Assembly: GCA_035760625.1 (NCBI GenBank)
Contig: DASTSP010000042.1
Coordinates: 1 to 43,795 of the forward strand
Origin: Minisyncoccota bacterium
Lineage (GTDB): Bacteria; Patescibacteriota; Minisyncoccia; Phycocordibacterales; UBA918
Direction: 5' to 3'
Length of the DNA stretch: 43,795 nucleotides
Part shown: in pieces, positions 1-35,401 of the stretch
Layout: each line of letters begins with the position of its first letter
Numbering within the stretch: the stretch's first letter is position 1
Position numbers and translations under genes: made by a program
The notes under the pieces: generated by a model
Databases searched by the model: none
What the model was told of the DNA's origin: nothing
Seen by the model: only the letters and a program-made list of their open reading frames with translations

Positions 1-75
1 GTCGAAGAGGGTCCTGCCCGCGAGCTCGTCCGCCGGACCGATTGAGATGGACACGAGGCGCGCCCCTAGTATATT

Positions 76-1761
76 GTGATGCGTATGGAAGGAGAGATAC
101 GAGAGCTCATCGACGCCGCGCTTGCCGCGAAGGGTCTCGACGCCGTCGCCGTTACCGTCGAGCACCCGGCCGATGAGTCGCACGGCGACTACGCGACGAA
201 CGCGGCGCTCGTCGCCGCGAAGCGACTGGGCGCGAATCCTCGCGCGCTCGCGGAAGACCTCGTGGCCCAGATGGCGGGGAAGTCGCCGAACATTGAATCC
301 ATCGAGGTCGCAGGACCCGGGTTCATCAATTTTCACATTGCACGGAGCTTCTTCGCGGAAGCCGTCGCGAACGCACGTGCGAAGGGGGACGCGTACGGAA
401 CGAACGATACGCGAAAGGGCCAGGAGATACTCTTCGAGTACACGAGTCCGAACCTATGGAAGCCGCTCCATGTCGGGAATCTGGTCGGAAATATAGTCGG
501 TGAGTCCGTCTCGCGGCTCTTCGAAGCGGAGGGTGCGACGCTCCGTCGCATAAATTACCCGTCGGACATCGGCCTAACCGTCGCGAAGGGCGTCTGGGGC
601 CTTAAGAAGACGGGCGGCGACCCCGAAGATATCAACGCCATTGGCGAGGCGTACCGGGTTGGAAACGAGGCGTATGAAACCGACGAGACCGCGAAGACGG
701 AGATCGAGGCGGTGAACCGCGCGCTCTACGCGGGCGACGACGAAGGACTAAAAGCGCTTCGCGAGAGGGGGCTTCGGACGTCGCACCGCCACCTTATGGA
801 GCTTTGCCGCATGCTCGGGACGTCGTTCGACCTCGAGATACGCGAGAGCGAGGTGAGCGATATCGGCACGGAGCTCGTTCGGACGCATACGGGCGACGTG
901 TTCGTGGAGAGCAACGGCGCGGTCGTCTTCCCGGGTGAGCAATATGGACTCCATACGCGCGTCTTCCTCAACTCGCAAGGTCTCCCGACGTACGAAGCGA
1001 AGGACCTCGGTAACTTCGCGCGGAAGGAACGTGCGTACCCCCATTGGACGCACTCGTATATCGTGACGGGCGGGGAACAGCGCGAGTATTTCATGGTTCT
1101 CTTCGAGGCGATGCGAAGGGTGTTCCCGGACACTGCCGATAAGATCCTCGCGCACATCCCCACGGGATTTCTCACGCTCACGACCGGGAAGATGTCCTCG
1201 CGGAAGGGAAACGTCCTCACCGCGGAGTCGCTTCTTGCGAGCCTTATGGAGGAGGTAGAGAAGCGAGCGACGGAGAGCCGCGCGGAGAACCTTGCCTCGC
1301 TCGTCGAAGAGGTCGCTGTCGGCGCGCTCAAGTATCAGATACTCCGCCAGGCCGCAGGGCAGGACATCGTCTTCGATAAAGAGCGCGCGCTCTCGCTTGA
1401 GGGAGACTCCGGCCCGTACCTAATGTACGCGCACGCACGCATGAGCTCCATCGAGGAGAAGGCCGCGGCGGCGGGTATGCACGCGGGAACGGACGCACCA
1501 GAGGTGCCGTACGCTCTCGAGCGCTTTCTCTACCGCTTTCCCGAGGTCGTTCTCCGGGCCGGTCACGAGTGCGCGCCGCACCACCTCGTCGTCTACCTCA
1601 CCGAACTCGCGAGTCGCTTTAACGCCTTTTACGCCGTGGAGAAGATCGTCGATGACGGCGACCCGTATGCCCCCTATAAGCTCTCGCTCACGAAAGCCGC
1701 GCGCGTCGTTCTTCGAAACGGGCTCGCGCTTCTCGGTATCGCGGCTCCGGAGCGAATGTAG
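76..1761 (+). CDS. argS: arginyl-tRNA synthetase
   Basis: 561-aa ORF with class I aaRS blocks (KPLHVGN HIGH-like, GKMSSRKG KMSKS-like) and an ArgRS-type C-terminal anticodon-binding region. Start is ambiguous (GTG 76, ATG 79, ATG 85). ATG 79 lies 7 nt after a TAGTAT -10-like hexamer at 67-72. Confidence 0.93.
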   Translation: MMRMEGEIRELIDAALAAKGLDAVAVTVEHPADESHGDYATNAALVAAKRLGANPRALAEDLVAQMAGKSPNIESIEVAGPGFINFHIARSFFAEAVANARAKGDAYGTNDTRKGQEILFEYTSPNLWKPLHVGNLVGNIVGESVSRLFEAEGATLRRINYPSDIGLTVAKGVWGLKKTGGDPEDINAIGEAYRVGNEAYETDETAKTEIEAVNRALYAGDDEGLKALRERGLRTSHRHLMELCRMLGTSFDLEIRESEVSDIGTELVRTHTGDVFVESNGAVVFPGEQYGLHTRVFLNSQGLPTYEAKDLGNFARKERAYPHWTHSYIVTGGEQREYFMVLFEAMRRVFPDTADKILAHIPTGFLTLTTGKMSSRKGNVLTAESLLASLMEEVEKRATESRAENLASLVEEVAVGALKYQILRQAAGQDIVFDKERALSLEGDSGPYLMYAHARMSSIEEKAAAAGMHAGTDAPEVPYALERFLYRFPEVVLRAGHECAPHHLVVYLTELASRFNAFYAVEKIVDDGDPYAPYKLSLTKAARVVLRNGLALLGIAAPERM

Positions 1762-19369: not shown

Positions 19370-19690
19370 ATGAAAAAGCTTCAGCGGAAGATCATGAGAG
19401 GCATCTACTACGCGTACGCGCTTCGTCTCGTCTCGCTCCCGGGCGTGCTCCAGGGGTTCTTCATGCTCGCCATCATGATAGCGCTCACACGCTTCGTCTC
19501 CCTTGGCCACGTCATCGCGAACTTCGAGACGGGCGGTTTCGCGCACGTCGGCACGTTCCTCTACAATGCGGTGCGTACGACGGAGATATGGACGCTTCTC
19601 CTCATCGGACTCTTCGTCTTCTCGCTCCTCTCGCTTCGTATCAGCCTCGTACCGCGAAGGGAAGAGGCGTACTCGTTCGCGCGCATTTAG
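19370..19690 (+). CDS. small integral membrane protein, possible anti-sigma partner (function unknown)
   Basis: 106 aa with 2-3 predicted TM helices, located immediately downstream of the sigma factor. Confidence 0.55.
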   Translation: MKKLQRKIMRGIYYAYALRLVSLPGVLQGFFMLAIMIALTRFVSLGHVIANFETGGFAHVGTFLYNAVRTTEIWTLLLIGLFVFSLLSLRISLVPRREEAYSFARI

Positions 19691-19700
19691 CGCTTCGATA

Positions 19701-19735
19701 TGAAAACCGCCGGCCCGTAGGGCCGGCGGTTTTCA
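19701..19735. terminator. bidirectional terminator (membrane protein / recA)
   Basis: TGAAAACCGCCGGCCC GTA GGGCCGGCGGTTTTCA, a perfect 16-bp stem with A/T-runs on both sides. Confidence 0.9.
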
Positions 19736-19742
19736 TATCCGC

Positions 19743-31356: not shown

Positions 31357-31852
31357 GCATATTCCGGAAACGAGATTGATAAGGTCTCGTTTCTAAAATC
31401 CTACGTGTTCGACGCACGTAGGTGTGTTCGCTATTCGAGAGAATAGCGGACGCCAGGTAAGCGCATGCAGCGAAGAGGACAATGCTTCGGCAGGGTCTTT
31501 TCGTCCGCTGCATGCACGACACAAAGTCTCACCTGAGCTTGTATCTCAGGTGAGCGCACTCAAAAATTGTACAGCGGTGTACAGCGTTCGTGTAATAGAC
31601 TATCGCGGCACAAAAGATGCCGTGTCCAGCCTTCCTTACAGGAACGATAAGGGTGTATGGTGGATGCCTTGGCTTCAAAGAGCGATGAAGGACGTGGTAT
31701 GGCTGCGATAAGCGCGGGGGAGATGCCAAACGATCGTAATATCCCGCGATGTCCGAATGAGGAAACTCACCTGCTTACGGCAGGTACCCTCGCAAGAGGG
31801 AGCGCACCCGGTGAAGTGAAACATCACAGTAGCCGGAGGAAGAGAAAGCAAC

Positions 31853-31918
31853 ACAGGGAGGTTTCTTTCTGATCGGAGGGCCGCAAGGCTCACCATTACG
31901 GTCAGGAAGAAGCTTCTT
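31853..31918 (+). other. 66-nt helical expansion/intervening segment in 23S domain I
   Basis: Inserted between GAAAGCAAC and GCGATCCCCTAAGTAGCGGCGAGCGAA, which are contiguous in E. coli. It folds as TTTCTTTC/GGAAGAAG plus CTGATCG/CGGTCAG plus a GCC-GCAA-GGC tetraloop hairpin. Confidence 0.7.
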
Positions 31919-32188
31919 GCGATCCCCTAAGTAGCGGCGAGCGAAAAGGGAAGAGCCCAAACCATTCGTGTTTACACGAATGGGGTTGTAGGGCAGGAGC
32001 GTCATTTAGTTGAGAAGAGTCACCAATTGGTGTGATAGCAGAACGCGTTGGGAAGCGCGACCCTAGCAGGTAATAGTCCTGTATGCGAAATTACATCAAC
32101 TCTTTTGCTTCTGTTCCTGAGTAGTTCGAGACATGAATAGCTCGAATGAATCTGGGAGCACTAACTCCTAAGGCTAAATATCTTTGAA

Positions 32189-32234
<46 letters not shown>

Positions 32235-32802
32235 GGAGAGGGGAGTGAAATAGAACTGAAACCATACATCTACAAGGAGTCGGAGCCCTGCGGGGCGACG
32301 GCGTGCCTATTGAAGAATGAGCCGGCGAGTGTATCTGTATCCTTTGTCTAAGCGGTAACCCCGCGGAGGCACAGTGAAAGCGAGCGTGAATAGCGCGAAT
32401 ATAGGGTACGGATACGACCCGAAGCGGGACGAGCTTGCCATGAGCAGGGTGAAGCGGGGGTAAAACCCCGTGGAGGCCCGAACCGGTGGACCGTTCAAAA
32501 TCCTCGGATGACTTGTGGTAGGGAGTGAAAAGCTAATCGAGTTCCGTAATAGCTGGTTCTCTCCGAAACAGCTTTAGGGTTGGCGTCGCGTGTTCCTCCT
32601 GGGGGTAGAGCACTGGAAGGTCTAAATAGGGGGAAACCCCGTTAGACCTATCAAACTACGAATACCAGGCAGTTAGAGCGCGGCAGTTAGACTACGGGGG
32701 AGAAGCTCCGTTGGTCAAAAGGGAAACAGCCCAGATCGCCAGTTAAGGTCCCTAAATATATGCTCAGTGCGTCTTGAGGAGGTGAGGATTCACTAACAGT
32801 CA

Positions 32803-32834
<32 letters not shown>

Positions 32835-33676
32835 GAAAGCGTAACAGCTCACTGATCGAGAGTCCTCGCGCCGAAGATGATCGGGGCTTAAGCATATTAC
32901 CGAAACTGCGGATTGTACGTTTCTTCGGAAACGTACAGTGGTAGGAGAGCGTTCTCTGTTGCGATGAAGGGAAGGTGAGAACCGCCCTGGAGTACAGAGA
33001 AGTGAGAATGCCGGCACAAGTAACCGCAAGATGGGTGAGAACCCCATCCGCCGAAATACCAAGGTTTCCTTCGCTATGCTGATCAGCGAAGGGTTAGTCG
33101 GTCCTAAGCCGATCCCGACAGGGGGAGGCGATGGATAGCAGGTTAATATTCCTGCACACTGTTCTGTTCGAAGGAGGGACGAAGCGTTGTACTCGAAGCA
33201 TCTTATTGGATTGGTGCTGGAGCTACGAGGAGGTCTGGTAGGCAAATCCGCCGGACATTAACTCCGAGTAGAGTCTGAACCTAAGGCTACGGCCGAGGGA
33301 ACGAGAGGAGCACGCTTTCGAGAAAAACTTCTAAGGTTAAGCAGGACGGTTCCGTACCGCAAACCGACACAGGTGGTAGGGTCGAGAAGACCAAGGCGAA
33401 CGAGTGAGGGGTCCTTAAGGAACTCGGCAAAAAAGCGGCCGTAACTTCGGGATAAGGCCTGCCCTTTCTCCGCAAGGAGGCGGGGCCGCAGCGAAAGATT
33501 TCCTGGCGACTGTTTAACAAAAACACAGCTCTCTGCGAAGACGTAAGTCAATGTATAGAGGGTGACGCCTGACCAATGCCGGAAGGTCAAACATGGAAGG
33601 TGGTACGGATTCGTCCGTACTGCTGGGCTATGTAAGCCCCGGTCAATGTCAGCGATAACTATAATCGTTCTAAGGT

Positions 33677-33866
33677 ACCGCGCGCGTCCACGACGCGCGC
33701 GGTAGGACTGGAACGATTATGGGAGTGTAAAACAGATACGCATAAAGCTACCTTTGCGCGCAGCGATGCACGCATTGTCCAAATGTGACCATCAAGAGAC
33801 CAAATGTCACACACCTCTCTGAGGTGAAGATAGAGTCCTTCTTGCAAAAGAAAAAAGGAACAGAAG
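33677..33866 (+). other. 190-nt insertion in 23S at E. coli position U1931 (candidate intron / intervening sequence)
   Basis: The conserved CTAAGGT|AGCG.AGTTCCTTGTCGGG is interrupted. The flanks read ...CTAAGGT | ACCGCG...CAGAAG | AGCGCAGTTCC. Internal hairpins include a 9-bp CCGCGCGCG stem and a TTCTT-GCAA-AAGAA tetraloop. Confidence 0.75.
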
Positions 33867-34505
33867 AGCGCAGTTCCTTGTCGGGTAAGTTCCGACGTGC
33901 ACGAAAGGCGTAACGACTGGGAAACTGTCTCAAGGACCTGCTCGGTGAAAATACAATGGGGGTGAAGATGCCCCCTACCTGCAATTAGACGAAAAGACCC
34001 CAGGAGCTTTACTGTAGCTTCGTATTGAGGCTGTTTGATTGATGCGTAGCATAGATGGGAGAGGTTGAAGCGTTCCTTTCGGGGGACGTGGACTCGTCAG
34101 TGAAATACCATTCTTCAATTGGGCAGTTTCTAACCTCGTTGGCAAAACCTTCGAGAGACAGTGCGTGGCAGGCAGTTTTAGTGGGGCGCTACCCTCCTAA
34201 AGAGTAACGGAGGGGTCTCAAGGTTGGCTAGGTGCGAATGGAAACCGTACCGATAGTGTAATGGCATAAGCCAGCTTGACTGTAAGGTGTCAGTACCGAA
34301 CAGATGCGAAAGCAGAGCATAGTGAACCGATGGTCCGCGTTAGATGCGGCCAGAGATTATCTGACAAAAGTTACCCTGGGGATAACAGGCTAGTCGTGCC
34401 CAAGCGTCCATAGCGACGGCACGGTTCGGCACCTCGATGTCGGCTCAACTTATCCTGGGGCTGGAGCAGGTCCCAAGGGTTTGGCTGTTCGCCAATTAAA
34501 AAGTT

Positions 34506-34543
<38 letters not shown>

Positions 34544-34815
34544 CTCTATCTATTGCAGGCGTCGATTCTTGAAGAGATTTGTCCCTAGTACGAGAGGACC
34601 GGGATGAACTGACCTCTGGTCTATCTGCTGTCACGCCAGTGGCACCGCAGAGTAGCTATGTCGGGAACGGATAACTGCTGAAAGCATCTAAGCAGGAAGC
34701 CGACTCTAAGATGAGGAATCATTAAGTCCCCTGAGAGATGATCAGGTTGATAGGCATCAGATGGAAGCACAGTAATGTGTTGAGTCGAGATGTACTAATA
34801 GGACGTAGTTCCTGT

Positions 34816-34834
34816 AGGGAATGCTGCACATGGC
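34816..34834 (+). repeat. 19-bp direct repeat copy 1 (overlaps the 23S 3' end)
   Basis: AGGGAATGCTGCACATGGC is identical to 34913-34931. Confidence 0.9.
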
Positions 34835-34912
34835 ACACGCGCCGTGTACGCAAGAACTCCGATTCGGACATACGTTCGAATTCGAAAGCAACCGTCGCAC
34901 GCGCTCGGTTGG

Positions 34913-34931
34913 AGGGAATGCTGCACATGGC
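34913..34931 (+). repeat. 19-bp direct repeat copy 2 (in 23S-5S spacer)
   Basis: Identical 19-mer 97 nt downstream of copy 1. The intervening 78 nt contains the palindrome TTCGAATTCGAA. Confidence 0.9.
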
Positions 34932-35008: not shown

Positions 35009-35081
35009 CGAGGGTGTGGCGCAGCTGGTAGCGCGTCGGCCGTGAGGCCGAAGGTCGTTGGTTCGAATCCAACCACCCCGA
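35009..35081 (+). tRNA. tRNA-like element, probable pseudo-tRNA or processing signal, with a non-canonical anticodon loop
   Basis: It has a canonical D-arm (GCGC AGCTGGTA GCGC), an AGGTC variable loop and a perfect T-arm (GTTGG TTCGAAT CCAAC). The anticodon arm is TCGGC-CGTGAG-GCCGA with only a 6-nt loop and no U33. The top of the acceptor stem has G/G and A/C mismatches, or a bulged A. No CCA is encoded. Confidence 0.55.
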
Positions 35082-35088
35082 CCCGACC

Positions 35089-35120: not shown

Positions 35121-35154
35121 AGGCACGTGTTCATTCGAGAATTGAATATTTAAA

Positions 35155-35254
35155 GTTGGTGCTATAGCGAGAAGGGTGAGACAGTCCGGGGGACTGTCGC
35201 AAGACCTTGAGCAGTTGCTGCGAAAGGTGTACAGCTCCTGTAAGGAGCACCGAC
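35155..35254 (+). ncRNA. 5S-like structured RNA candidate (shares 5S leader and helix I, unrelated interior)
   Basis: The closing helix GTTGGTGCT / AGCACCGAC has 9 bp with one G-U. The first 23 nt are near-identical to the true 5S 5' end. The interior has an 8-bp GACAGTCC/GGACTGTC hairpin but lacks 5S loop C and loop E motifs. Confidence 0.45.
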
Positions 35255-35283
35255 GAACGTAGATTGAAAATTGAATATTTAAA

Positions 35284-35391
<108 letters not shown>

Positions 35392-35401
35392 TTTAAGTAT
35401 T

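Follow-up and report, generated by a model that had tools for sequence, protein, structure and literature searches.

A miniature L1931 insert in the 23S rRNA gene of a Minisyncoccota bacterium, probably a group I intron without P4-P6

An insertion beside helix 69

The contig DASTSP010000042.1 of a Minisyncoccota bacterium (assembly GCA_035760625.1), analysed over 43,795 nucleotides (nt; this whole stretch is called the window below), carries a 23S ribosomal RNA (rRNA) gene interrupted by a short insert, and a 5S rRNA gene downstream. The Rfam model of bacterial large-subunit (LSU) rRNA spans 31637-34818 on the plus strand with 2420 bits, and in its local search about 193 nt fall outside the alignment, between ...UCUA and AGCG(C)A(G)UUCCUUGUCGGG. 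Because the model leaves these bases unaligned, they are a true insertion and no expanded variable helix; the first-pass annotation of this DNA had asked whether they might be relocated to a normal variable helix, and the model does not relocate them. The junctions read ...ATAATCGTTCTAAGGT / ACCGCGCGCG...ACAGAAG / AGCGCAGTTCCTTGTCGGG, the insert beginning with ACCGCG. With borders chosen so that a U stands upstream and a G ends the insert, it occupies 33677-33866 (190 nt); U33676 ends the 5' exon and G33866 ends the insert, as annotated. Counted on E. coli K-12 rrlH, rRNA position 1931 falls on the T of CTAAGGT, and the insertion site is therefore L1931. The exons joined without the insert align to E. 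coli 23S rRNA as one piece. The LSU model and the K-12 rrlH numbering together bear out the 190-nt insertion at L1931 proposed earlier.

This site adjoins helix 69 (H69) of the 23S rRNA at the subunit interface, so removal of the insert seems necessary. L1931 is a homing site of LAGLIDADG group I introns of 654-700 nt in Simkania, Thermotoga and Synechococcus, which documents the Thermotoga occurrence named in the annotation (PMC1995217). It is also one of the frequent 23S insertion sites of the Candidate Phyla Radiation (CPR) (PMC11270868).

No open reading frame (ORF) of more than 78 codons overlaps the insert, the overlapping ones continue into the rRNA, and no endonuclease-sized ORF was found in the insert, which agrees with its first description as ORF-less. 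Its fold is more stable than that of shuffled sequences (z = -3.7 for the insert alone, z = -6.0 with flanks). In the minimum free energy (MFE) structure of the insert alone, the 5' end is self-folded into a hairpin (H0) and the final 15 nt are unpaired; the complementarity scan found no terminal inverted repeat. The annotated 5' hairpin is present, with complementary arms of 13 nt each (33676-88/33692-704). The insert is also complementary to its exon (ATAATCGTTC/GAACGATTAT): positions 33661-33671 match 33710-33720 in 11/11 bases, one G.U included, and an 11/11 match to the exon strand was absent from 171 shuffled controls, the best of which reached 10. The complementarity to the 3' strand of H69, noticed earlier as a 10-nt stretch, is real and extends over 11 nt.

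Kinship with L1931 group I introns

Relatives were collected by two scans. The species scan covered one genome per bacterial species and looked for the S element followed, 14-44 nt on, by G/AGCG.A.TTCCTTGTCGGG (the stroke marks the 3' border); the metagenome scan (L121-L240) used the family core motifs AGAGACCA and AGATAGAGTCC plus a G before AGCG. Copy counts from both are minimum values, and the taxonomic range is covered incompletely. Among the matches listed from the species scan, L1931 group I introns occur in many phyla, mostly at 613-750 nt, with about twenty of 197-402 nt. The closest relative among those matches is a 197-nt insert (L102), 80.5% identical over its full length, in a Saccharibacteria metagenome-assembled genome (MAG) whose 23S gene is 93% identical to that of the window and whose flanks are syntenic, which makes the source of the window a Saccharibacteria-like member of the CPR. 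At least 92 inserts with both junctions, the window's included, carry the AGAGACCA...AGATAGAGTCC core at L1931, and at least 80 of these (69 distinct sequences) are 186-256 nt long; these short inserts are here called minis. The collected loci together contain at least 93 near-full-length copies (186-256 nt), from 6 species genomes and 87 metagenome contigs. The named hosts of mini copies among the matches listed, all 6 species genomes, are labelled Patescibacteria (CPR). Viral contigs scanned for L1931 inserts ending in G gave 0 matches.

An nhmmer profile of 68 minis, built without the window sequence, matches 33692-33866 (E=1.3e-30, 100.5 bits, model positions 18-208 of 208), its sole match in the window. 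Stripped also of the closest, Saccharibacteria-like clade, the profile still matches the insert (E=2.9e-25). The window insert belongs to the family of mini L1931 introns. This distribution bears on the notion that the bases are a retained expansion segment, or that the gene is a non-functional 23S copy. Nothing specific speaks for it beyond the unusual nature of CPR ribosomes, and it is scarcely credible: the site adjoins H69, the remaining gene is a full-length LSU rRNA by its score, the same insert recurs in many lineages with compensatory evolution, and in the Saccharibacteria relative it lies in the corresponding, syntenic rRNA locus.

The Rfam group I model (Intron_gpI, RF00028) aligns to 33734-33854 with 25.3 bits (E=2.3e-4 in a 601-nt search, 0.017 window-wide), matching P3, the R element (AGAGACCAAAUGUCACA), P8, the S element (GAAGAUAGAGUCC) and P9. 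In this alignment 81 model positions of P4-P6 are reduced to 1, and only 6 nt (33790-95) lead from the 5' strand of P3 to P7; the small size of the insert results from the loss of the entire P4-P6 domain. The Rfam threshold is passed by the canonical ORF-less introns L001 and L017 and by L091 (51-74 bits), and is failed by the minis L065, L066 and L116. Among group I hallmarks, the insert has the U and G borders (common to all the relatives, the G being part of the search patterns), the order of the guide sequence, a P3-P7-P8-P9 half-core with a bulged P7 base, and J8/7. The annotation had offered a minimal or degenerate ORF-less group I intron as one reading, and it gains support from these retained core parts and from homology to L1931 introns that pass the Rfam threshold.

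Comparison with larger L1931 introns shows where the missing part lay. The known ones share with the insert the site, the position of the guide sequence, the P2 loop motif, P3, P7, P8, J8/7 and P9, with direct homology on both sides of P4-P6; they measure 654-700 nt and have an endonuclease gene and a complete P4-P6, whereas the 190-nt insert is without all these. Canonical L1931 introns have the same P2 hairpin and loop motif after the guide sequence. Three introns of 278-313 nt (L196, L091, L078) share the whole 5' module and have P4 motifs AUGCUGGAAA...AAUCAGCAGG with P5/P6 at the point of the 6-nt linker; in four of 684-722 nt (L197, L206, L225, L231) an additional ORF extends from P4'/P5 through the whole of P6; in L206 and L225 it is a LAGLIDADG_1 endonuclease (Pfam). 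The mini profile matches the larger introns in two blocks, with a break at model positions 133/134 and 60-540 nt between them, and the break lies exactly between the 5' strand of P3 and AGAGACC. The minis are thus the larger intron with one internal block removed, and a single deletion is the probable event that took the endonuclease gene together with the enclosing P4-P6 domain. In the 43.8-kb window, tblastn found no LAGLIDADG homologue and an Rfam scan found no second group I fragment. Homology to L1931 group I introns and the secondary structure described below are well supported.

The kinship also bears on an intervening sequence (IVS) of the RNase III type, which would be excised without religation and leave the 23S rRNA fragmented beside H69. 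RNase III-processed 23S IVSs are likewise short and ORF-less, H0 and helix A plus P1 offer double-stranded RNA, and short ORF-less CPR inserts at other 23S sites have been suggested to be IVSs (PMC11270868). Processed IVSs have a long closing terminal stem, whereas the ends of this insert form no long mutual stem; the insert is instead homologous to group I introns, lies at an intron homing site, and has a guide sequence that aligns both exons for ligation. IVSs of this type sit in helices 9, 25 or 45. Such an origin is very unlikely.

Other architectures occur at the same site. Three metagenome contigs (L215, L147, L149) carry a third one, with H0, the helix A strand, a CUACCU guide with A opposite U-1 and full P4-P6, and apparently no P2 hairpin. 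An 83-nt L1931 insert in an acidobacterial 23S gene (L114:3777-3859, Terriglobia MAG CAVUGT010000013) has nothing left of a group I intron but the J8/7-P7'-P9 tail (...GTGTGAAAGATAAAGTCCAGCTTCTCTGGAAACAGAG...) and is therefore a remnant even more truncated than the minis. The RefSeq record L241 (NZ_AP027616.1, 'E. coli plasmid pLR-72_4', 2911 bp) consists of a 23S rRNA gene only; its 5' end (GGTCAAGCTACGAAGGGCTTACGG...) is not E. coli-like, and the record is therefore probably a contaminant or misassembly.

Short inserts of this kind have been counted before. In Saccharibacteria, 35/35 23S genes carry an insert of >=100 bp (Tsurumaki et al. 2024, PMC11270868), and 64 of the 66 rRNA inserts measure <=250 bp and lack an Rfam group I match (PMC11270868). 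CPR-wide, 469 ORF-less 23S inserts without an intron match were recorded, as classified by Rfam (PMC11270868). By its size and its sub-threshold Rfam score, the window insert is probably one of these unclassified short inserts. That study left them uncharacterised, whereas the mini family treated here consists of group I derivatives with a defined secondary structure.

Secondary structure and surroundings

The features of the insert and its flanks are collected in Table 1, where intron numbering is window position minus 33676. The full structure was scored by pair counting on an alignment (A1) of the 69 distinct sequences with 18 + 14 exon bases; MAFFT misaligns part of helix C and the joiner 33721-46 in it. 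Standard pairs occupy 94.2% of cells, against 38-43% with the 3' partners slid by 1-3 columns, and covariation scores 0.475 in the proposed structure but 0.06-0.10 once the partners are slid. None of 500 shuffles attained any observed measure. RNAalifold, run blind on A1, recovers helix A, H0, P2, P3, P8 and PX. The window sequence forms all family pairs except one U-U (helix C) and one C-A (P2). The spread of compensated helices over 69 distinct sequences suggests selection on the fold.

Table 1. Features of the L1931 insert and its flanks, with covariation in alignment A1
Feature	Window position	Strand	Intron or exon numbering	Partner or basis	Compensatory changes
Helix A exon strand, 3' half of H69, AUAAUCGUUCU	33661-33671	+	5' exon -16..-6	intron 34-44	4 pairs
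P1 exon strand, AAGGU; 5' splice site after U33676 (= E. coli U1931)	33672-33676	+	5' exon -5..-1	complementary to 33750-33754	
Hairpin H0, 10-12 bp, GC-rich, from first intron base	33677-33703	+	intron 1-27		10/10 pairs
Helix C 5' strand, GGACU	33705-33709	+	intron 29-33	33776-33780	3 pairs
Helix A intron strand, GGAACGAUUAU	33710-33720	+	intron 34-44	H69 3' strand	4 pairs
Variable A-rich joiner, helix A to guide sequence	33721-33746	+		poorly aligned	
Internal guide sequence, GCUACCUU; GCU is P10 part, ACCUU is P1 part	33747-33754	+			
P2 hairpin, GNRA tetraloop GCGA at 33763-66	33755-33774	+	intron 79-98		8/8 pairs
Helix C 3' strand, UGUCC (AGUCC in most members)	33776-33780	+	intron 100-104	intron 29-33	3 pairs
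P3 5' strand, UGUGAC	33784-33789	+	intron 108-113	intron 130-135; Rfam Intron_gpI aligns to P3	6/6 pairs
6-nt linker CAUCAA in place of P4-P5-P6	33790-33795	+			
P7 5' strand, G-A-GAC, A33797 bulged	33796-33800	+		matches group I R element	
P3 3' strand, GUCACA	33806-33811	+	intron 130-135	complementarity, covariation, Rfam	6/6 pairs
P8 hairpin, conserved CC:GG step	33812-33826	+	intron 136-150	Rfam aligns to P8	5/6 pairs
J8/7 AAGAUAGA and P7 3' strand GUCC (S element)	33827-33838	+		Rfam alignment to UgAAGAUAUAGUC	
P9 5' strand, UUCU	33839-33842	+	intron 163-166	33862-33865	4/4 pairs; 96% of cells paired
PX intron strand, AAGGAAC	33855-33861	+	intron 179-185	3' exon +7..+13	1 pair; 96.7% of cells paired
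P9 3' strand AGAA and terminal omega-G33866; 3' splice site after it	33862-33866	+	intron 186-189 (AGAA)	intron 163-166	4/4 pairs
3' exon; AGC (+1..+3) pairs guide (P10), GUUCCUU (+7..+13) pairs PX	33867-33879	+	3' exon +1..+13		
5S rRNA gene	35284-35392				

The helices between insert and exons covary. In helix A four exon-intron pairs change in compensation (among them CG42/UA23, GU33/CG25 and CG53/UA16), and intron and exon therefore change together; in PX one intron-exon pair does so (UA59/AU5/CG2). This extends the first observation of H69 complementarity to the whole family, just as the 5' hairpin is compensated in all its H0 pairs. In total the insert pairs 26 exon bases (-16..-1, +1..+3 and +7..+13): P1, helix A, P10 and PX use bases of H69 and of a native downstream rRNA helix, since the exon bases bound by PX are also complementary to 33931-41 in the rRNA. 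Single-sequence MFE folding with flanks prefers helix A over H69.

P1 and P7 had escaped the first reading by eye, and both exist. The guide sequence, recognised only once relatives were aligned, has the canonical order: GCU pairs with 3' exon +1..+3 (P10), followed by ACCUU, which pairs with 5' exon -1..-5 (P1), and GYUACCU recurs in nearly all minis. A canonical guide sequence of the G.U type (GCCUUAG-like), sought by eye in the insert, was not found. P7 contains the bulged A. In the family listing, a UAAA(A)CA motif in the joiner upstream of the guide recurs in most members.

Two further pairings proposed in the annotation fared less well. The complementarity of AGGACT and AGTCCT exists, yet it is not the compensated pairing. 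GGACU at 33705-09 is complementary both to 33776-80 and to the 3' strand of P7 (33834-38). Where the 5' strand of helix C varies (GGAUU four times, UGACU four times, GAACU, UGGCU), 33776-80 follows (AAUCC, AGUCA, AGUUC) and the P7 3' strand stays AGUCC. Because 33776-80 compensates and the P7 3' strand does not, helix C is the selected pairing; AGGACT/AGTCCT as P7, complementary in 61/69 members, was rejected for the same reason. The TTCTT-GCAA-AAGAA hairpin can be read in the sequence but is not conserved even in close relatives (for example L157, L169 and L239) and was likewise discarded; the conserved, covarying partner of UUCU is the AGAA directly before the terminal G, forming P9. Helix A taken as P1, with a splice site after U1926, was rejected because the exon would not be restored.

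The rest of the locus shows several further features. Between 23S and 5S, a tRNA-like element (35010-35083, plus strand) scores 47.6 bits with the Rfam tRNA model, and ARAGORN names no anticodon for it; its anticodon arm, TCGGCC-GTGA-GGCCGA, has a 4-nt GNRA loop in place of the 7-nt anticodon loop, so that the element may be an anticodon-less tRNA mimic serving as a processing signal. The same spacer has direct repeats on the plus strand (34818-34931 and 35141-35306): GGGAATGCTGCACATGGC occurs twice, near 34818 and 34913, and ATTGAATATTTAAAGTTGGTGCT.T.GCGAGAAGGGT also occurs twice, the second copy being the start of the 5S gene, which suggests a partial duplication of the 5S 5' end. A second insertion relative to the Rfam model, 67 nt in 23S domain I (about 31852-31918, plus strand), resembles an extended hairpin and may be an element of the IVS or expansion type. 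Rfam found no 16S rRNA gene in the 31 kb upstream of the 23S gene (window 1-31636); the rRNA genes are therefore unlinked, as reported for many CPR genomes (PMC8172020). At 19680-19738 (plus strand) a sub-threshold Rfam match to the Pseudomonas sRNA P37 (35.7 bits against 50, E=0.0027) may be due to chance.

Proposed splicing and its meaning

The explanation favoured here, held with moderate confidence, is that the insert is a miniaturised, ORF-less descendant of a LAGLIDADG-type L1931 group I intron, spliced by group I transesterifications. It retains the guide sequence (P1/P10), P2 with its GNRA loop, P3, P7 with the bulged A, P8, J8/7, P9 and the terminal G, and has added the lineage-specific helices H0, helix C, helix A and PX. 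Splicing itself we infer from homology and structure. Removal by group I-type chemistry overall is rather probable; protein-free self-splicing is possible, at somewhat less than even chances, and a protein helper may take part. Tentatively, and with similar reserve, the minis may represent a natural and widespread self-splicing class without P4-P6 and without the splice-site G.U, in which a junction and a pseudoknot clamp the 26 exon bases.

The pair list allows helix A, P1, P2 and helix C to be arranged as a four-way junction, since intron base 33 abuts 34, 78 abuts 79 and 98 abuts 100, and the exon strand is continuous. H0, starting from intron base 1, can be stacked on P1 at the splice site in this model. 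Immediately after P7, P9 and PX would make up an H-type pseudoknot, with the terminal G and the 3' splice site placed in its last loop. During pre-rRNA synthesis, these clamps would capture both exons and keep H69 from forming, while the junction would position P1 beside the P3-P9 half-core. Exon clamps and junction would thereby replace substrate docking by P4-P6 and its G.U receptor, and docking by clamps would fit the tolerated A-U at the splice site. Guanosine, bound at the presumed guanosine-binding pair G33798-C33837, would attack after U33676; the terminal G33866 would then take its place in the binding site, and the 5' exon would attack after G33866, joining the exons as CUAAGGU-AGCGCAG. 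H69 and the downstream helix would then be free to fold. CPR rRNA insertions are reported to be missing from transcripts (Brown 2015, as cited in PMC9297842).

Nearly all group I introns are considered to have P4-P6 and a G.U at the 5' splice site; P4-P6 counts as belonging to the universal core, and its contacts, including G.U recognition, are central to models of substrate docking. Several observations weigh against splicing by a group I mechanism. The P4-P5-P6 domain between P3 and P7 is absent, and the splice-site G.U is replaced by A-U (A33750 opposite U33676). The base opposite U-1 is A in 62/67 minis and G in the canonical relatives (GUUGCCUU, L001 and L017); the canonical ORF-less L001 and L017 have the splice-site G.U, whereas the insert has A-U plus the added H0, helix C, helix A and PX. 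The P4-P6-bearing relatives L197, L206 and L225 have the splice-site A-U as well, so the loss of G.U is not simply due to the loss of P4-P6. The Rfam check that the annotation had recommended gave a divided answer: core parts align, but 25.3 bits is half of the gathering threshold of 50. P1 (ACCUU/AAGGU), P10 (GCU/AGC) and P7 (G-[A]-GAC/GUCC) are invariant across the family and hence give no covariation test; because of this invariance they are read from complementarity and homology alone. That AGAGACCA, AGATAGAGTCC and the G before AGCG do not vary in L121-L240 was dictated by the search pattern, and the constancy of P7 and J8/7 is in part of the same origin; AGAGACC is seen independently only in the seven minis from the species scan, whose pattern lacks it, and constancy of the terminal G in relatives is no independent evidence because G before AGCG stands in the search patterns. 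The pairing of GGACU with the P7 3' strand, possible in 61/69 members, gives a non-catalytic alternative fold that may compete and block the guanosine-binding helix. An engineered T4 td ribozyme from which P4-P6 was deleted is about 1000-fold slower than the full ribozyme, as cited in PMC2879505.

The same losses, P4-P6 and the G.U pair together with the slowness of the engineered deletion, would suit a catalytically dead group I relic whose helices only present the junctions to host cutting and joining factors, a role to which extensive exon pairing is also suited. Candidates for such factors are a protein maturase, an RNA ligase paired with an endonuclease, and an RNA resembling P4-P6 that acts in trans. 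However, J8/7, the P7 with its bulged A and AGAGACC stay group I-like in the seven minis found without AGAGACC in the pattern, and the 43.8-kb window is, as noted, without a LAGLIDADG gene or second group I fragment. A dead relic is unlikely on this balance, and the preferred reading is still that of an intron spliced by group I chemistry.

The nearest precedent comes from the laboratory. The engineered td ribozyme, likewise a P3-P9 half-core without P4-P6, is still active (Ikawa, Shiraishi, Inoue 2000, as cited in PMC2879505), and splicing without P4-P6 is therefore feasible in principle. The td variant is a laboratory deletion with no compensating module, whereas the insert is natural, belongs to a widespread family and has extra exon-binding helices. 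Small natural group I introns are another point of comparison. The tRNA introns of Azoarcus (about 205 nt) and Anabaena (about 249 nt) resemble the insert in size, in having no ORF and in GNRA contacts such as L2-P8; unlike it, they have complete P4-P6 and G.U, lie in tRNA anticodon loops and have no long exon clamps. A literature search, confined to the searchable library, found no description of natural group I introns without P4-P6 or of the structure of the mini family, which is no proof of absence.

These small-genome bacteria appear to have a single kind of 23S gene, and the minis sit at an essential point within it. The result identifies several hundred 'unclassified' short CPR 23S inserts and explains why Rfam misses them, and alignment A1 could seed a covariance model for rRNA annotation in metagenomes. 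If the proposed mechanism is true, the minis would reveal the minimal working ribozyme, in which a different, peripheral module replaces half of the core, and they would be a living counterpart of the 'minimal catalytic domain', for which deletions made in the laboratory have until now been the only examples.

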